Shown here: piece after piece, positions 3,665 to 62,385 of the stretch
Layout: the number at the start of each line of letters is the position of its first letter
Position numbering within the stretch: the stretch's first letter is position 1
Sequence record: MH992122.1
Reading direction: 5' to 3' (one strand)
DNA: 64,000 nt
Source: Escherichia phage OLB35
Translations under genes and position numbers: made by a program
The notes under the pieces: generated by a model
What the model saw: the letters and a program-made list of their open reading frames with translations, nothing else
Told to the model about the DNA's origin: nothing
The model's database searches: none

Positions 3665-3678
3665 AGGACATCTATCAA

Positions 3679-5499
3679 TTAACCAAGCATCCAATCTTTA
3701 CGGAGTTCAGGGTCGTTACCCATGAGCATTTCAAAGAGTTCTTTCCAATTTTCAGGAAGTTTAACTACGTCGTACACAGGGTTCTGAATCATTTCTTTAT
3801 ATTCATCCCGCTGAAGTGAGCCCAATCCCTTTATGTATCGAATACTATGCTTAGGCAGTGTATCTTTAACTTCTTCATACTCAGCTACAGTATAAAACCA
3901 TTTTTGAGTTTTACCAATTTGTGCAATAATTACAGGCGTTTTAACAAAGCGAATACGTCCTTGTTCAAACAATTCAGGCCAATTACTAAAGAAAGCAAGC
4001 AAAGCCGGATAGATACTTCCAAGGCCGTCATGATCGGCATCGGTCATAATTGCAATATTACGATAGTTCGTATTCTCTGCTTTTTCACCAAGAATAAGAC
4101 CCGTGATAGCACAGATATCAAAGAGCTCTTTGTTCTTCATCATATCAGCATATGACATACCCCAGCTATTCATCACCTTACCACGTAATGGGAATCCACC
4201 GTGTAGTTCACGGTCACGAACATCAATGAGATATCCAATTGCCGAATCACCTTCTGTTAAGAACAATGTCGTATCTGCATCTTTACCACATTGGTTAGCT
4301 TTAATATGCTTATGAACCTTAGCTTTAGTTGCCTTTTTAGCTGCTTTAGTTTCTGCAGCCTTTTCTGCTGCCAATTTACGAGCTAATGCTGCTTCAACAA
4401 TAGGCATAATCAAGGCTTCGTTTTTAAGAAGTGCCTGAGCAATTTTCTTAGCATCTAATTGGATATGATTACGAATATCACCATATGTTGACGTTAAACG
4501 TTCTTTAGTCTGAGAATCAAAACGCATGTTGCTCATGTCTCTAATAAACATCAACATTGTGAGACATTCTTTAACACGAGCTTTAGTGACTTCAATACCC
4601 TTATATTTCTTTTTAATACCCGGCAAAAGATGTTCGCAGATATCGTCCATTACACATTCAACATGATGTCCACCGTTTTTAGTATGGATGTTATTCACAT
4701 AAGTTAAATGACGGAAGCCATCTGGTGATGTTGTGAATGCTATAGAGACTTTATCATTTTCTTGAATGATGTTATCTTCACCAAATTGTTTAGCAAATCG
4801 TTTAAAATTGCCATCAACCTTTTTACCATTAAATGTGAACTTGATATCAGGATAAACGACTGCCAATGTTTGAAGTCGGTCTAAAGTAATATCTAAATAA
4901 ATTTGAGATAAATTATGCTCTTCAAATGAAGTGAAATCAGGAGTGAAGATTACTTTAGTGCCTTTACCTTTAGATTTCTTAGAAGACCATGATTTGTTTT
5001 CCATTCCGTTTGAACAGTTAACAGTGATTTCATTTTCGCCATCTGACGTGATGCCTGTAAACAACGTAGAGAAGATATTAGTTAAACTACTCCCGACGCC
5101 GTTCATACCACCAGTCTTGCGTTCAGAGTCATCGCCAAAGTTACCACCGGCCTTTGGAATAGTCCAGGCTGCTACAGGCCCAGGAATTTGTTCACCTGTT
5201 TGGTCGGTAACTAAACCTTGAGGAATACCACGTCCGTTATCTTCCACCGAAACTTGATTATTTTTAATTTGCACATCAATTTTATTTGCAAACTTAAACG
5301 ATGTACGAATAGCTTCATCAACCGAGTTGTCAATAATCTCATCGATTAATTTAACCAGACCAGGAACATATTCAACTTGTTGATATTTACCAAACAAAAA
5401 ACGCTCGTGGGCTTCTTTAGCAGAAGAACCAATATACATACCACTACGTTTCTTAATATGTTCTACATCTGACAATACCTTAATTTCATTTTTAATCAT
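3679..5499 (-). CDS. 39: DNA topoisomerase II large subunit, gp39 fused with gp60 region
   Basis: 606-aa ORF; MIKNEIKVLSDVEHIKKRSGMYIGSS... near-identical to T4 gp39; single continuous ORF of fused 39+60 length. Confidence 0.95.
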   Translation of the reverse strand: MIKNEIKVLSDVEHIKKRSGMYIGSSAKEAHERFLFGKYQQVEYVPGLVKLIDEIIDNSVDEAIRTSFKFANKIDVQIKNNQVSVEDNGRGIPQGLVTDQTGEQIPGPVAAWTIPKAGGNFGDDSERKTGGMNGVGSSLTNIFSTLFTGITSDGENEITVNCSNGMENKSWSSKKSKGKGTKVIFTPDFTSFEEHNLSQIYLDITLDRLQTLAVVYPDIKFTFNGKKVDGNFKRFAKQFGEDNIIQENDKVSIAFTTSPDGFRHLTYVNNIHTKNGGHHVECVMDDICEHLLPGIKKKYKGIEVTKARVKECLTMLMFIRDMSNMRFDSQTKERLTSTYGDIRNHIQLDAKKIAQALLKNEALIMPIVEAALARKLAAEKAAETKAAKKATKAKVHKHIKANQCGKDADTTLFLTEGDSAIGYLIDVRDRELHGGFPLRGKVMNSWGMSYADMMKNKELFDICAITGLILGEKAENTNYRNIAIMTDADHDGLGSIYPALLAFFSNWPELFEQGRIRFVKTPVIIAQIGKTQKWFYTVAEYEEVKDTLPKHSIRYIKGLGSLQRDEYKEMIQNPVYDVVKLPENWKELFEMLMGNDPELRKDWMLG

Positions 5500-11298: not shown

Positions 11299-11443
11299 AA
11301 TTAACCTTTAATCAGTTGGAATAATGATGCGCTAAGTGGTAGGCCACGTTTCAATTTTAATTTACCAATGAAACCAATCTTTTCAAAACGTTGCAGACCT
11401 TGGATAACTTTATCATATGTATCGAAAAGCGATTCAGCGTCAG

Positions 11444-12049
11444 TTAATTTAGTTTTAGTTTTCCAGTCAGAGCCTTTAAAAGAAGAACGTTGAGTTTAGT
11501 AAGTTCATGTCCTTCCGCTTGATGTGAGCCGTTAATGCGTGCTTTCAAAGCAACAATTCTAAGTTTAGATTCGTTAGATAAAGGTTGATTTTTCATCATG
11601 TTCGCCATATGCTTAACACGATTTTCACGTTTTGCTCGGATTTTTAAAATAGTACCATAAACCTTTTTGATTTGGGCCCATTTCTTCTCGTCGAGATTAA
11701 GTTTCTCTACTTTACGGGCAGAAGGATTAGCGATACGTCTTGCAATGGCATCACGTTTCTCAATAAGTTCTTCTAATGTTAAATCAGAACGAGCCGTGTT
11801 ATATTTTTTCTTAACTGGGATAACATTACCTTTAATGTAGCCGATATTGTTATCAAAACGTTCTAAGGATAATTTCTCACCTTCAACAGAGTTATTGAAA
11901 GATTCACCTGAGTAAGCGCAGACCTTTTGATCAAGAATGTTTTTAAGGTAGTTAAAGTCTAAGTTAAAATCCTTAGAGCGTCTCTTCGCAGAAGCTCTGG
12001 TGTGGTCAAGACGACGATTTATTTTGTTAATTTTATTATTTGATAACAT
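11444..12049 (-). CDS. hypothetical protein in srd position
   Basis: 201-aa ORF between dda.1 and modA-like gene; own early promoter upstream; identity with T4 Srd not verified. Confidence 0.45.
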   Translation of the reverse strand: MLSNNKINKINRRLDHTRASAKRRSKDFNLDFNYLKNILDQKVCAYSGESFNNSVEGEKLSLERFDNNIGYIKGNVIPVKKKYNTARSDLTLEELIEKRDAIARRIANPSARKVEKLNLDEKKWAQIKKVYGTILKIRAKRENRVKHMANMMKNQPLSNESKLRIVALKARINGSHQAEGHELTKLNVLLLKALTGKLKLN

Positions 12050-29933: not shown

Positions 29934-30194
29934 GTTGTGGTCCTCATTGGTAAGTAGGTGTATTGTACACTATTCTAGTTAAAGCATTCATACTTTGCTT
30001 GTAGTCCAATCATAATCCATCCGATTATAAGAGTCGGAATCATTACTGGAGCCGTTAAGCTCCAGTAGATAGTCATGACAAGCATCAATAGTAAAAGTCC
30101 TATTGTTATTGCTTTCATTGCTCGCCTCGTAACATGGCACCTAGTGCACCACCAGGGTGGAACTTAAGGAAGATCATTAGAGGTAAATCCACGT

Positions 30195-30753
30195 TCAGAT
30201 GAAAGGTTGATAGCGAACGTATCGATAAGCGCTAACAACAATGTAGTGGACATGGTCGGAGCTAAAGAGATTCTCGTCGACCTCTACCGCGATGCCTGTA
30301 CAGAAAGAGTAATCAAAAAGGGCTTCATTTTCTTGCGGAATGTCCGGGTTACAATGCAACAGAATCTGTTTAACCTGAGGACGAATCATACGAAGATGTT
30401 TAGCAACACCTATCATTTCTTCGGTCTTACCAGAACGACTAATATGAATCAACACATCATTAGGCGCAATGAATCCTGCATCACCATGAGAATAATGCCC
30501 GGTGTTCAAATACATGCTAGGAATACCCAATGAAGCAAAATGTCTCGGAAGCTTTAGTTGCGATATTAGCGTTCTTACCGACACCTGTAATAATTACACG
30601 ACTTTCATAATTGCTCAGTCCTGGGCGACGAAGAGTTTCAAGAATAGCATTATATCGGGCAGGGTTTTTACTAATTACTTTAGCCATAGTAGCCAAAGAA
30701 GAAGCTTGTTTTACGATTGCGTCAATAGCGATAGTGATTGGTGTAGTTTTCAT
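30195..30753 (-). CDS. SIS-domain sugar-phosphate isomerase (GmhA/KdsD-like), frame broken at a homopolymer
   Basis: ORFs 30517-30753 (...ITGVGKNANIATKASETF) and 30195-30584 (...ASLGIPS...HGDAGFIAPNDVLIHISRSGKTEE) join into one SIS domain if one T is removed from the run at 30537-30540. Confidence 0.65.
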
Positions 30754-30793: not shown

Positions 30794-33531
30794 TCAAAAA
30801 TCAAACATATCGAACAGAGATGCTTTCTTCTCGTAATCGAGTTTAGCTGCTGTTGTGAATCCTTCAAGTGGTTTAATAAATGTCTTCTCAAGGAGAACAG
30901 TATAGTCCATCCAATGAAGTACATCATCTTTGATTAAATCGGTGATTTCCGTACCAGAAGGCCATGCGATACATTTATCACCGAACGGGTTTCCATCACG
31001 TAAAGGCAGAACATATACTTTTTCACCTTCTACAACTTGTGGAGCATCAATATTACCTTTGATAGCTCGGTTATATGTCAGAATTCCACGAATATGGAAC
31101 GGACATTTAGGACCAGGGAATCCACCAACGTCATATTTAGCAATGTTATTCGCAGAAGATACCGCCGCGATGCTAATATAATTCAATTGACGGAATTCTT
31201 TTTCAAACTCTTTAAAATATTCTTGTAATGATTCTTCACCTTCTTGAAGCATACGACGAATACATTCTTTAAGAGCTTTCTGTACTGCTTTAGGGGTCGA
31301 AGATTTCTGAGTCTCTAGACCCATGATTTTGAGTTTAGGCTCAGCGTATCTGGTTCCTTCCATATCCCACACGTTTAATGCATAACGTTTCTTACCAGTC
31401 CAGAATCCACCAATACCTTTAGAACCGAGCGGAGGACCAGCGATAGCTTCTCGGTCCATGAACATTAAGTGTTGTTTATTGTTCATGTATTCGCACATTT
31501 CACGGAAACCTCTATCAATAGCCGGTTCCATACGTTCACGTGCAAACTTATCTAAGAAGTCTACCCAATGGTTGGTATCACGGAATTTAGATTCACCGAC
31601 CTTATCAATAATTTTATCAGCAGATACGTAAATAGAGTCTGTATCACCGTAAAGAACGAAAGCTTCACCTTCTGTACCACAAACTTCGTTCAGATATTCA
31701 TTAACTTTACGTTCAATCCACTGTAAAGCCATTTGCCCAAATGTTGTGATTGCAGTAGCATTACGCAAATCATAATAACGGAACCAAACGTTGCCAAGTG
31801 CACCATAAAGCGAGTTGATGAGCAATTTACGGTTAATTTGTGCAGTCATACCTGCAACTTCAGTACGTTGAGCTCTAAACAACATTTCATTAAGAGATTT
31901 AGCAGACAACTTTTTAATCTTTTCTTTAATCTCATCGCTGAAGTCGAAACGATAATCAACATCTAATGGTTCGTCAACAGAAAGATTAGGATTATGTAAG
32001 GCTTCTTTAATTATTTCACCATTACGTTGAGCTGCAAGCATGTAACCTTTATGTTCTTTACGTTGATTAAAGACCTTAGTGATTTCAGTTGGAACTACAC
32101 CATCACGGTCTTTATAATACATCATGCCGTTAGGAGAGCAACTGTACACATCTGAAGGACGTTCAGCGATTGCGTTAATATAATCATGCAATGGAGCTAC
32201 TTTAAACGTTCCTGCTATTGTTTCTGGGCTAATATTCACTTGGCGAATAATACTTGGATACAGAGATGTAAGGTCGAAACTCATTACATATTTGTATCGA
32301 TTTGGAATAGGTTCCTTAACAAAAGCGCCAGGATAAGGTTGAACCTGGTGAGAACGACCTTGTGGAATCACCTTGTTCTGCTCTTTAAGGCTATTAAAAA
32401 TAATAACATCCCATGTTTTAATTGGGCTAAACACAGATTGAATCTGTATCTTAGCATAATAACCCATGTCCAAACTCAAGTTTATGAACTGGCGTTTAGC
32501 ATCAATTTGCAATACACGATACACGTCGATAATGTTATAAGAAATATATCGTTGGTGATTACTTTCACGAAGTTTAGAAATAGGACCGTCATATTTCAGT
32601 TTACCGACATTCAATTCAAATTCTGAAATGTAATCCAGAGAATACGACGGTTGGTTTGTGAAAGAGAATTTTTTGTAAAGGTCGATATAATCAAGAACAG
32701 AGATACCGAACAATGTAATGATTTCACGAGAACCGTACATGTTTTCAATAACTTTAACACGAGTCTTGCGATACTGCAAAAACCTAGATCATTGTCGGGT
32801 GGTGATAAACGTTTCGCAGTAGATTCGCCAAAAATATTCTTGATTCGGTTATACACATATGGAATATCAAATGACTCAACGTTCCATCCAGTCAAAATGA
32901 CAGGAGTTTTCTGTTGCCAGAAGTTGAGATATTCCATCAACAATTCTTTTTCGTTATCAAACGGCATATAAATGATTTTATCAATAATTTCGGATGGAAC
33001 TTCATCACCACCTTGTTCTTGAAGCTTAGCAGCGATTTCAATAGACCATTCTTCTACATTACCATATGGAGAATTCAATAGATCAAATACGTAGAACCTG
33101 TCGTCAATTGAGTCATAATGGGTGATAGCATCAATCGGATGTTTTGCTTGTGACGGCTCAGGGAACCCATCCGGAGATGTTACTTCGATGTCGAAGTTAG
33201 CCACACGAATTTTTGTATGGTCGTATTTGATTTCATAGTTATAAGTGTCAGACAAATACGCCAATTTGAAATCGTCCATACCTAATGCTTCAAGACCAAT
33301 ATCTTCCATGCGTTTAATCCATTGGGAGGCATCACGCATATTAGCGAACAACTTACGAGTACACGGCTTACCGTAGATATCGAAATATTTAGTAGCCTGA
33401 CTTTCTGGACAATGAGCAAACAATGATGGTTTATATTCTACTTCACGAGTACGTTCACGGCCATTAGAATCGATGTAACGTTCAAAAATTGAATCACCAA
33501 TCTGTTCAACCGTTAAGTAAAATTCTTTCAT
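30794..33531 (-). CDS. 43: DNA polymerase gp43 (family B), two overlapping frames
   Basis: ORF 32611-33531 (MKEFYLTVEQIGDSIFERYIDSNGRERTREVEY..., RB69-type N-terminus) and ORF 30794-32779 (...NMYGSREIITLFGISVLDY...YGDTDS...); frame break near 32771-32799. Confidence 0.9.
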
Positions 33532-61089: not shown

Positions 61090-61548
61090 CTAGATTTTAA
61101 TCACTGCTTTAGAAGCTTTTCCTGGTAGTCGTTTACTGTTAATAATAGCCATTCTACATTGAAGAGTCTTCATTTTGAATGCCGGATTTTCGCGACAAAC
61201 TGTAAGTCCTAACCAAAGATTTCCATCAGTTATTTCTAAACGGCCTGGGCGATATTCGACACCTTCGACAAAATCTTCATCAACATCTGGACGTGCCGGC
61301 ATTGATAAAAATTCTGCAACTTCTTTAACATGATTTTTTACTTTACGAAATAATTCAAAAACGTAATTCTCATCTATTTCTCTCTGGATGGCACGATCTA
61401 AGAGATGTTGAGAATACTTGATATGAAAGCCTGGTAGTCCAAGAGACTTTGCAGCATCTTTTATACCGGCATTGATTTGACGAAACTCCGTTTCAAAGAT
61501 TCGACGGAGTTTATTGCGACGGATAAAAACTTCCGAATTGATAGTCAT
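61090..61548 (-). CDS. regB: RegB site-specific endoribonuclease
   Basis: ORF trimmed to ATG at 61546-61548 (MTINSEVFIRRNKLRR...), matches T4 RegB. Confidence 0.88.
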   Translation of the reverse strand: MTINSEVFIRRNKLRRIFETEFRQINAGIKDAAKSLGLPGFHIKYSQHLLDRAIQREIDENYVFELFRKVKNHVKEVAEFLSMPARPDVDEDFVEGVEYRPGRLEITDGNLWLGLTVCRENPAFKMKTLQCRMAIINSKRLPGKASKAVIKI

Positions 61549-61556
61549 TTTTATTT

Positions 61557-61605
61557 CTCCTCTAGTTGACAGGTCTATAGTAACACAACTAGAGGAGAAG
61601 TAAAC
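61557..61605 (-). promoter_or_regulatory. early promoter within RBS-sequestering hairpin upstream of regB
   Basis: -35 GTTTAC (61600-61605), 17-bp spacer, -10 TACTAT (61577-61582); inverted repeat ctcctctagttg (61557-61568)/caactagaggag (61586-61597) contains the SD. Confidence 0.5.
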
Positions 61606-61628
61606 CACTTTTTGATAGGAATTAACTT

Positions 61629-61905
61629 TTAAACTGCTTTAGATACTTCGTCACGAACCTGGTGGAAGTTCTTGAGCTGTTCAAGGCGTTGTTCGTAATA
61701 CGCAATCTCATCTTCTTCAAGACAATCGTCAGCGTCTTCTTTCAGATATGCCTTGTACTCATTAAAGAGGGCCCATAGGCGGTTCTCAAAGTCATCAAGG
61801 CTTTGAATTTTCTTGTGCTTAGGAACAAGGCTAAAAGGATTGCTTTCAGTTATGCTTGTGACCTTTTCTTATGAGTTCCAAATACCCAGTAATAGTAGAA
61901 GCCAT
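61629..61905 (-). CDS. hypothetical protein, frame-broken at a homopolymer (absent from the ORF track)
   Basis: ATG 61903-61905 overlaps upstream stop (TAATG); after about 14 codons a T4 run (61864-61867) shifts the frame; the other frame reads ...[57 protein letters not shown] to TAA at 61629-61631. Confidence 0.35.
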
Positions 61906-62171
61906 TAGTATTTTTCCTCAGGTCGAAATACTGCACGACACGCCCACATGCTGGCTTCTTTTAGATGTTGCTTAGCGTACTTAAGAGCCTGCACTGCATC
62001 CATATCTTCTTTGGTTTGCTGCTCTGTTTCATTTTCTTTCAAGATATATGCTTCTTCAATAAGAGCATCAAACAGCAATCCAAGACGGACTTCTGCATCT
62101 TTAATAGCGTTCACTTTACCGATTTTATCATCGGTATGCGGCTTGTAGCCTTTGATGTCTTCAATCGACAT
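61905..62171 (-). CDS. hypothetical protein
   Basis: ORF 61905-62345 trimmed to ATG at 62169-62171 because the listed N-terminus overlaps the upstream gene in another frame. Confidence 0.4.
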   Translation of the reverse strand: MSIEDIKGYKPHTDDKIGKVNAIKDAEVRLGLLFDALIEEAYILKENETEQQTKEDMDAVQALKYAKQHLKEASMWACRAVFRPEEKY

Positions 62172-62385
62172 AAGGAATTTCCTCATCGGTGGCAAGGTCA
62201 TATTCGACCAATTGGATAGGCTCGTTAATACCATATCCACGTACAGTGATATCGGTTGTCGGATATTTTCCAGTAATATCACCCATTCTAAATGATTCAG
62301 TGAATGATTGCTCGCCTGAATTACTAAACCATTCTGCGAAAGCATTTAGCACATCTTTAGACCCTTCTATAATCAATTTAGCCAT
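62161..62385 (-). CDS. hypothetical protein
   Basis: 74-aa ORF, ATG overlaps the upstream stop. Confidence 0.45.
   Translation of the reverse strand: MAKLIIEGSKDVLNAFAEWFSNSGEQSFTESFRMGDITGKYPTTDITVRGYGINEPIQLVEYDLATDEEIPYVD

Follow-up and report, generated by a model that had tools for sequence, protein, structure and literature searches.

The disrupted gene at positions 61629-61905 of the Escherichia phage OLB35 sequence is identified, by homology and position, as vs.3, which encodes the already characterised anti-Thoeris sponge TadIV-1. As written, the locus is not predicted to encode a functional TadIV-1. The sequence around the break indicates that it is not a simple homopolymer miscall, since it lies inside a mosaic patch and the A4 run in question has the length found in the short vs.3 allele. 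On balance we lean towards an assembly artefact as the cause, in preference to a genuine hybrid pseudogene. Neither the gene family nor its position or mechanism is new, all having been published in 2026.

Position and identity of the gene

The 64 kb stretch analysed (the window) is the left part of the genome of a Mosigvirus, an RB69-like T-even phage, with about 97% identity to CCU7 and Shf125875. On its minus strand the genes run vs.8, vs.7, vs.6 (GrcA), vs.5, vs.4, the flagged locus, regB, vs.1 and vs. This local gene order therefore places the flagged stretch in the vs.3 slot between vs.4 (Acb2) and regB, its position in Straboviridae, with its start coupled to the vs.4 stop (Table 1). 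The sequence-only reading had given the upstream gene as an ORF at 61905-62345. The real gene is vs.4, a name annotated in RB69 and JS09, which spans 61905-62171; the extension to 62345 is mechanical only. The neighbouring Vs.5 of the window (62161-62385, 74 aa) had no exact match in 153 billion recorded gene positions. In its N-terminal region, a +1 and a -1 indel at 62342-62345 offset each other when compared with Shf125875; this too may be a garbled patch. On the other side of the locus, the GTTTAC/TACTAT block before regB is, going by the T4 consensus, presumably a T4-type early promoter; a sigma-70 scan did not list it.

Table 1. Features of the vs.3 region and frame breaks elsewhere in the window.
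Feature	Position	Strand	Basis or remark
vs.4, Acb2-type cyclic-nucleotide sponge, 88 aa	61905..62171	minus	Pfam PF24729 Acb2_Tad1_hairpin, E 4.4e-18; identical protein on many Mosigvirus contigs
vs.3 start as written: ATG plus 18 codons, then TGA	61846..61905	minus	Translation; ATG at the vs.3 start position of relatives
5' patch of short-allele type	61859..61905	minus	87% to JS09 type: 5 mismatches and 1 extra base
TTTGGAACTCAT, 12 nt of the long allele (codons F-G-T-H)	61871..61882	minus	2 nt out of register with the ATG
A4 run (T4 on plus strand)	61864-61867	minus	Removal of one A joins the frames
vs.3 body, +1 frame, 79 codons plus TAA, start-less	61629..61868	minus	phrog_2037, PDB 9WIW
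Premature TAA (AAA, Lys92, in relatives)	61629..61631	minus	Cuts invariant tail K93-L-I-x-F-K-E99
Remnant of last 7 codons and old stop (TAG to TGG)	61605..61628	minus	Alignment to relatives
Probable regB early promoter, GTTTAC-17 nt-TACTAT	61577..61605	minus	Block conserved in all alleles; overlaps vs.3 end
regB endoribonuclease, downstream gene	61090..61548	minus	PF10715 REGB_T4 on identical proteins; annotation in relatives
srd (11304-12049), +2 nt (AA to AAAA on plus strand)	about 11478	minus	Breaks after codon 190
T6 run in mrh (T7 in Shf125875)	13970		Identical to Sanger-sequenced RB69
T6 run in 61.2 (T7 in Shf125875)	18312		Identical to Sanger-sequenced RB69
Arabinose-5-phosphate-isomerase-like gene (30118-30753), three +1 insertions	30172, 30269, about 30537-30541	minus	
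gp43 DNA polymerase, clean 26-nt insertion CCGACAATGATCTAGGTTTTTGCAGT	32773-32798; T5 run 32778-32782	minus	Splits gene into two frames

A profile of the homologues matched one solved structure, PDB 9WIW, the TadIV-1 of phage UPEC07, with an E value of 6.7e-50. The window protein, once repaired by a one-base deletion, matched the same structure at 4.9e-27. Long, short and window versions of Vs.3 all fall into phrog_2037, listed in PHROGs as of unknown function (window E 6e-30), and Pfam holds no family for Vs.3. A first literature search for vs.3, vs.4 and regB returned nothing useful, and the relevant paper was reached through the PDB match. T4 Vs.3 is TadIV-1, which inhibits type IV Thoeris (TIR-Caspase) by sequestering N7-cADPR (PMC13243611). 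Long members of the family, of about 90-101 aa, are active against this defence, whereas the short group of about 70 aa was inactive against it in the assay (PMC13243611). The protein is a dimer of two-helix hairpins whose disordered N-terminal 32 residues form the binding pocket, with contributions to binding from R18, R19, S21, S23, K34 and E58 in U07TadIV-1; the Arg-Arg pair of this loop, R18/R19 in U07 numbering, corresponds to R17/R18 in T4 (PMC13243611). Removal of residues 2-18 left U07TadIV-1 active, but removal of residues 2-32 abolished activity (PMC13243611). In agreement with this work, an AF2 model of an intact 99-aa homologue (P0001), built on a 30-sequence alignment and with a mean pLDDT of 64, shows residues 1-29 as disordered and helices at 36-60 and 64-98.

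The adjacent Vs.4 resembles TadIV-1 in being a small helical-hairpin sponge for immune signals, and the two genes are translationally coupled in one early anti-defence cluster. It differs in belonging to the PF24729 family and in its ligands and oligomeric state (PMC13243611), and it is intact in the window. In annotation, JK36 labels vs.3 as 'endoribonuclease RegB domain-containing protein' and the molecule of PDB 9WIW is listed as 'Endoribonuclease', a misnomer that has probably spread from the adjoining regB.

Every relative examined carries one intact ORF at the vs.3 slot, coupled to vs.4 by TAATG or TAGTG and starting at the same coupled ATG, or at GTG in one allele. The long allele (99 aa, MAQILSGFGTHYEASRRITESNPF...KKLIPFKE) is found in G53, JK36, JQD51, Shf125875 and many metagenomic contigs. 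Short alleles have 71 aa in JS09 and others (MASTITGLLDFQEKV...), 73 aa in RB69 (ORF117c) and 69 aa in OP870146. All contigs with an identical Vs.4 or RegB likewise have an intact vs.3, of 69, 71 or 99 aa. Comparison with related genomes, proposed in the sequence-only reading as a check, thus turned up no relative without an ORF at this place, and the proposal of a real but unannotated gene at 61629-61905 was upheld by the intact, vs.4-coupled ORF of the relatives.

ATK47 and ATK48, in which nothing is annotated at this slot, were considered as natural losses of vs.3. This was rejected, as ATK47, the one examined, contains an intact 99-aa vs.3/TadIV-1 ORF (KT184309.1; L026 247-546) that is absent from its GenBank annotation. 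Close to its 3' end, RB69 ORF117c (L021 4363-4584) has a base that JS09 lacks, which turns the conserved ...TPFYQ tail into ...TLILSIK and represents either a natural or a Sanger-era C-terminal frameshift.

Structure of the vs.3 copy in the window

Direct translation bore out the TAATG overlap of the minus-strand ATG at 61905-61903 with the upstream stop, TAA, and showed that this frame closes after 19 codons, at the TGA at 61848-61846. The +1 frame, after a TAA at 61871-61869, is open until the TAA at 61631-61629. The earlier description of this frame was right about its end and about the missing start; its length is 79 codons and not the 70 given. Neither ATG nor GTG nor TTG was found when sought in these 79 codons, in which the near-cognate codons ATA, ATT and CTG do occur. 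In shuffled sequence, about 0.5% of stop-to-stop stretches reach 70 codons. The open +1 frame is not a product of chance, because from 61855 on it matches the annotated 99-aa CDS of many relatives.

Deletion of one A from the run at 61864-61867 yielded a 91-aa ORF, as had been predicted, with 77 of the 79 open +1-frame codons used after the run. A single-base deletion restores the frame only inside 61849-61868, where A4 is the longest run. This repair, proposed in the sequence-only reading, is the most economical one, but it does not recover a normal protein. In an alignment of 30 homologues R16/R17, K93, L94, I95, F97, K98 and E99 are invariant, and both R16/R17 and K93-E99 are absent from the window protein even after the repair.

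The copy as written has three defects: a mosaic 5' end without the Arg-Arg pair, a frame break inside the patch, and a nonsense codon that removes the tail. Short-type sequence makes up the first 47 nt, including ATG-GCT-TCT-ACT-ATT-ACT-GGG and AAGAAAAGGTCA, and the 5' patch is matched at 88% over 49-50 nt by 79 records. It takes the place of the first 17 codons of the long allele, the invariant Arg-Arg among them, which becomes Thr-Ser in the repaired protein. In this stretch the window differs from the short allele by four substitutions and one extra base, all of which coincide with TTTGGAACTCAT, whose last T begins the +1-frame TAA at 61871-61869. The net effect of the 5' patch is one additional nucleotide and a TAA in the downstream frame.

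From GCATAACTG (61855) on, the window has the long-type allele. Over the 218 nt compared (61632-61849) there are 3 mismatches to the long allele, an identity of 98.6%, which is a closer match than in the flanking genes. Kept in the +1 frame of this body are ITESNPF, part of the ligand-binding loop, and the helical hairpin core. This two-helix core is encoded only to residue 91, with the invariant K93-E99 lost. The tail including the TAA carries 4 substitutions within 26 nt (61606-61631) that occur in none of 164 matching records, the best of which matches at 96.8%. The four unique tail substitutions were considered as derived from the short allele, and this was rejected as only 2 or 3 of the 4 agree with it, which is compatible with chance.

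Set against the long TadIV-1 group (T4 Vs.3; U07TadIV-1, PDB 9WIW), the window's copy shares the slot, ITESNPF, counterparts of K34 and E58, the predicted two-helix core as far as residue 91 and its 98.6% DNA identity over the body with intact 99-aa Mosigvirus alleles. It departs from that group in having no single intact ORF of about 90-101 aa. Of the flexible N-terminal loop, which in this group has Arg-Arg and the Ser/Thr-x-Ser-Asn motif, it keeps ITESNPF but has lost the pair (R18/R19, U07 numbering), its first 17 codons being replaced. In addition, a nonsense codon costs it the last 8 residues, invariant in the 30 homologues. It resembles the short group (RB69 ORF117c, JS09_066; 69-73 aa) in its first 47 nt. 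Short alleles are intact and run straight into the helical core, whereas the window enters a long-type loop in the other frame.

Neither form of this hybrid allele, intact or broken, was found in 50,697 phage records, IMG/VR, the JGI metagenomes or a set of 5.8 billion proteins. Exact-pattern scans of IMG/VR and the JGI metagenomes for the window-specific vs.3 junctions gave no copies. The repaired N-terminus was found in no protein among the 5.8 billion, the closest of which to the hybrid is 84% identical and has a normal MAQ...RR N-terminus.

Frame breaks elsewhere in the window

To survey frame breaks, 118 annotated CDSs of Shf125875 were translated and searched against the window. As a control with the same reference, 0 of 72 genes were split across frames in JS09 and 2 of 28 in RB69. 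In srd, the 2 extra bases are absent from RB69 and Shf125875, and their removal gives a 248-aa ORF. The isomerase-like gene falls into four segments, each with 93-100% amino-acid identity and each in a different frame, and its three insertions are present in none of 152 matching records. At two of the three insertion sites both alleles of a known SNP stand in tandem. One reads GGAAGATC (AAGATC) where relatives have GGAAGTC or GGAAATC (AAGTC or AAATC), and the other reads CAAAATG where they have CAAAAG or CAAATG. Such tandem SNP alleles are produced by the merging of two haplotypes in a consensus and not by mutation. The isomerase insertions thus suggest that two haplotypes were merged in the consensus, or that the phage sample was mixed.

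None of the 146 to 307 matching phage records contains the 26-nt insertion in gp43, nor does IMG/VR, and CCGACAATGATCTAGGTTTTTGCAGT occurs once in the window. An exact-protein look-up of the window's gp43 fragment gave no match. Without these 26 nt the canonical 903-aa ORF is restored exactly; with one more T in the T5 run, the ORF has 912 aa, 9 of them inserted. Two ribosomal explanations, translational bypass and a -1 shift, were considered and rejected: the site has neither matching take-off and landing codons nor a proper slippery heptamer, and simple removal of the insertion brings back the canonical gene. The insertion looks like an assembly artefact. A viable phage cannot do without the gp43 DNA polymerase, and therefore at least this locus is wrong as written. 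The assembly is unreliable at the single-base level, as judged by these frame breaks that no relative shares, gp43 included.

The sequence-only reading had counted the vs.3 break as the third homopolymer-associated break in the window and proposed systematic homopolymer indel errors. The suspicion of a faulty assembly was justified by the further unshared breaks, but run-length errors are not their main cause. A miscalled run should differ in length within a conserved context. At vs.3, the 12-mer AAGAAAAGGTCA is identical, A4 run included, in every short-allele record fetched, where the region is read in frame as GAA-AAG-GTC, and the break sits in a mosaic patch of about 50 nt whose context is not conserved. 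Elsewhere, srd has a +2 duplication, gp43 its 26-nt insertion and the isomerase-like gene its three single-base insertions, and the breaks of the window lie in patches that depart from the sequence of relatives. True run-length differences numbered two, in mrh and 61.2. Both T6 runs are shared with the Sanger-sequenced RB69 and are therefore probably genuine alleles; in RB69, too, mrh is annotated as two ORFs. Separately, the gene for the topoisomerase II large subunit (3679-5499, minus strand) has compensating -1/-2 indels at 5396 and 5459-5460, 64 nt apart, which put about 21 codons near the N-terminus out of register and leave a 606-aa ORF open. At its 3' end (3673-3691) there is a 19-nt insertion relative to Shf125875.

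Origin of the disruption and its meaning

An assembly artefact is the explanation we consider somewhat better than even, because the vs.3 lesions lie at both ends of the stretch over which long and short alleles differ and because other breaks exist, two of them with a haplotype-merging signature. Mosigvirus populations carry two very different vs.3 alleles, and the window's vs.3 would have arisen as a consensus in which the two were garbled where the divergent block begins and ends. Such garbling would be expected from a mixed sample or from a reference-guided consensus at a dimorphic block, and the real phage would most likely have an intact vs.3. Less probable, though still a serious contender, is a real hybrid pseudogene. 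Recombination between a short and a long allele would have exchanged the first 50 nt of a long vs.3 through illegitimate or microhomology joints, or through patchy heteroduplex repair, shifting the frame; a nonsense mutation would then have removed the tail. T-even phages recombine readily. With its short-type 5' end, 12-nt long-type patch and long-type body, the mosaic fits such an event, and three independent lesions in one 300-nt gene are consistent with real decay. Two of the three, being substitutions or replacements, are not accounted for by indel errors, and the unique substitutions are concentrated in the tail, beyond the new stop. The A4 run has its native short-allele length, so that a single miscall is not indicated, and the fact that only 2 or 3 of the 4 tail substitutions go towards the short allele also argues against an artefact. 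Moreover, vs.3 is dispensable and its alleles vary widely, RB69 has natural breaks (the C-terminal frameshift of ORF117c; split motB.1, 61.1 and mrh), and experimental mating of T-even phages exchanges exactly the vs.3 region (PMC13243611). Against a pseudogene, the same assembly has defects that are impossible in a viable phage (gp43) or technical in signature (tandem SNP alleles), and none of the collections searched holds the allele. In addition, the identity of the body to intact alleles, above that of the flanks, means that decay would be very recent.

Within the artefact explanation, and already counted in its probability, is the special case of a single over-called base in the A4/T4 run (61864-61867) of an otherwise correct sequence, with a 91-aa hybrid Vs.3 as the product. 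Among the 20 nt in which a one-base repair can work, this is the only one that falls at a run, it gives 17 residues before ITESNPF, the same as in the long allele, and errors are clearly present in the assembly. It is nevertheless unlikely, as the 12-mer with the run has A4 in the short-allele records, the N-terminus has no homologue among the 5.8 billion proteins, and the window's other unique breaks are not run-length miscalls. Its product would also lack the invariant R16/R17 and K93-E99, and R18/R19 matter for N7-cADPR binding in U07TadIV-1. Programmed recoding, by a +1 shift near AGA-AAA-G or by reinitiation after the 19-codon leader, would instead give an N-terminally altered TadIV-1. 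The codons AGA and ATA are seldom used in E. coli, and a lysine tRNA could re-pair from AAA to AAG. A product starting near this putative shift site could in principle work, as U07TadIV-1 without residues 2-18 is still active (PMC13243611). The layout recalls prfB-type +1 frameshifting in its two overlapping frames and short 0-frame dead end, but the locus lacks a slippery codon with a stop, and no relative uses two frames, all having single intact ORFs. Neither a stimulatory stop nor a rare codon occupies the A site, the local RNA folds no better than shuffled sequence does (z = -0.21), the +1 frame offers no ATG, GTG or TTG, and the premature stop and missing Arg-Arg would persist. An Rfam search gave no hit, and promoter and terminator scans and RNA folding revealed nothing relevant. 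With neither a conserved two-frame layout, nor a shift-prone site, nor a stimulator found, we regard recoding as highly improbable. Just as improbable is that the sequence is correct and a working sponge is still made, with the anti-defence gene under frameshift control. A milder version has no working product and sees in the sequence a real hybrid of active and inactive alleles just after the inactivating recombination.

The finding has little meaning for biology as it stands, and its practical value lies in annotation. The slot should be labelled vs.3/TadIV-1, disrupted, and not as an unknown gene, and the OLB35 assembly, in which the DNA polymerase gene is also broken, should not be trusted at the single-base level. 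If the lesion is real, OLB35 would be a strain that has lost TadIV-1 function naturally, with sensitivity to type IV Thoeris as the prediction, and an example of exchange between long and short alleles destroying the ligand-binding loop.
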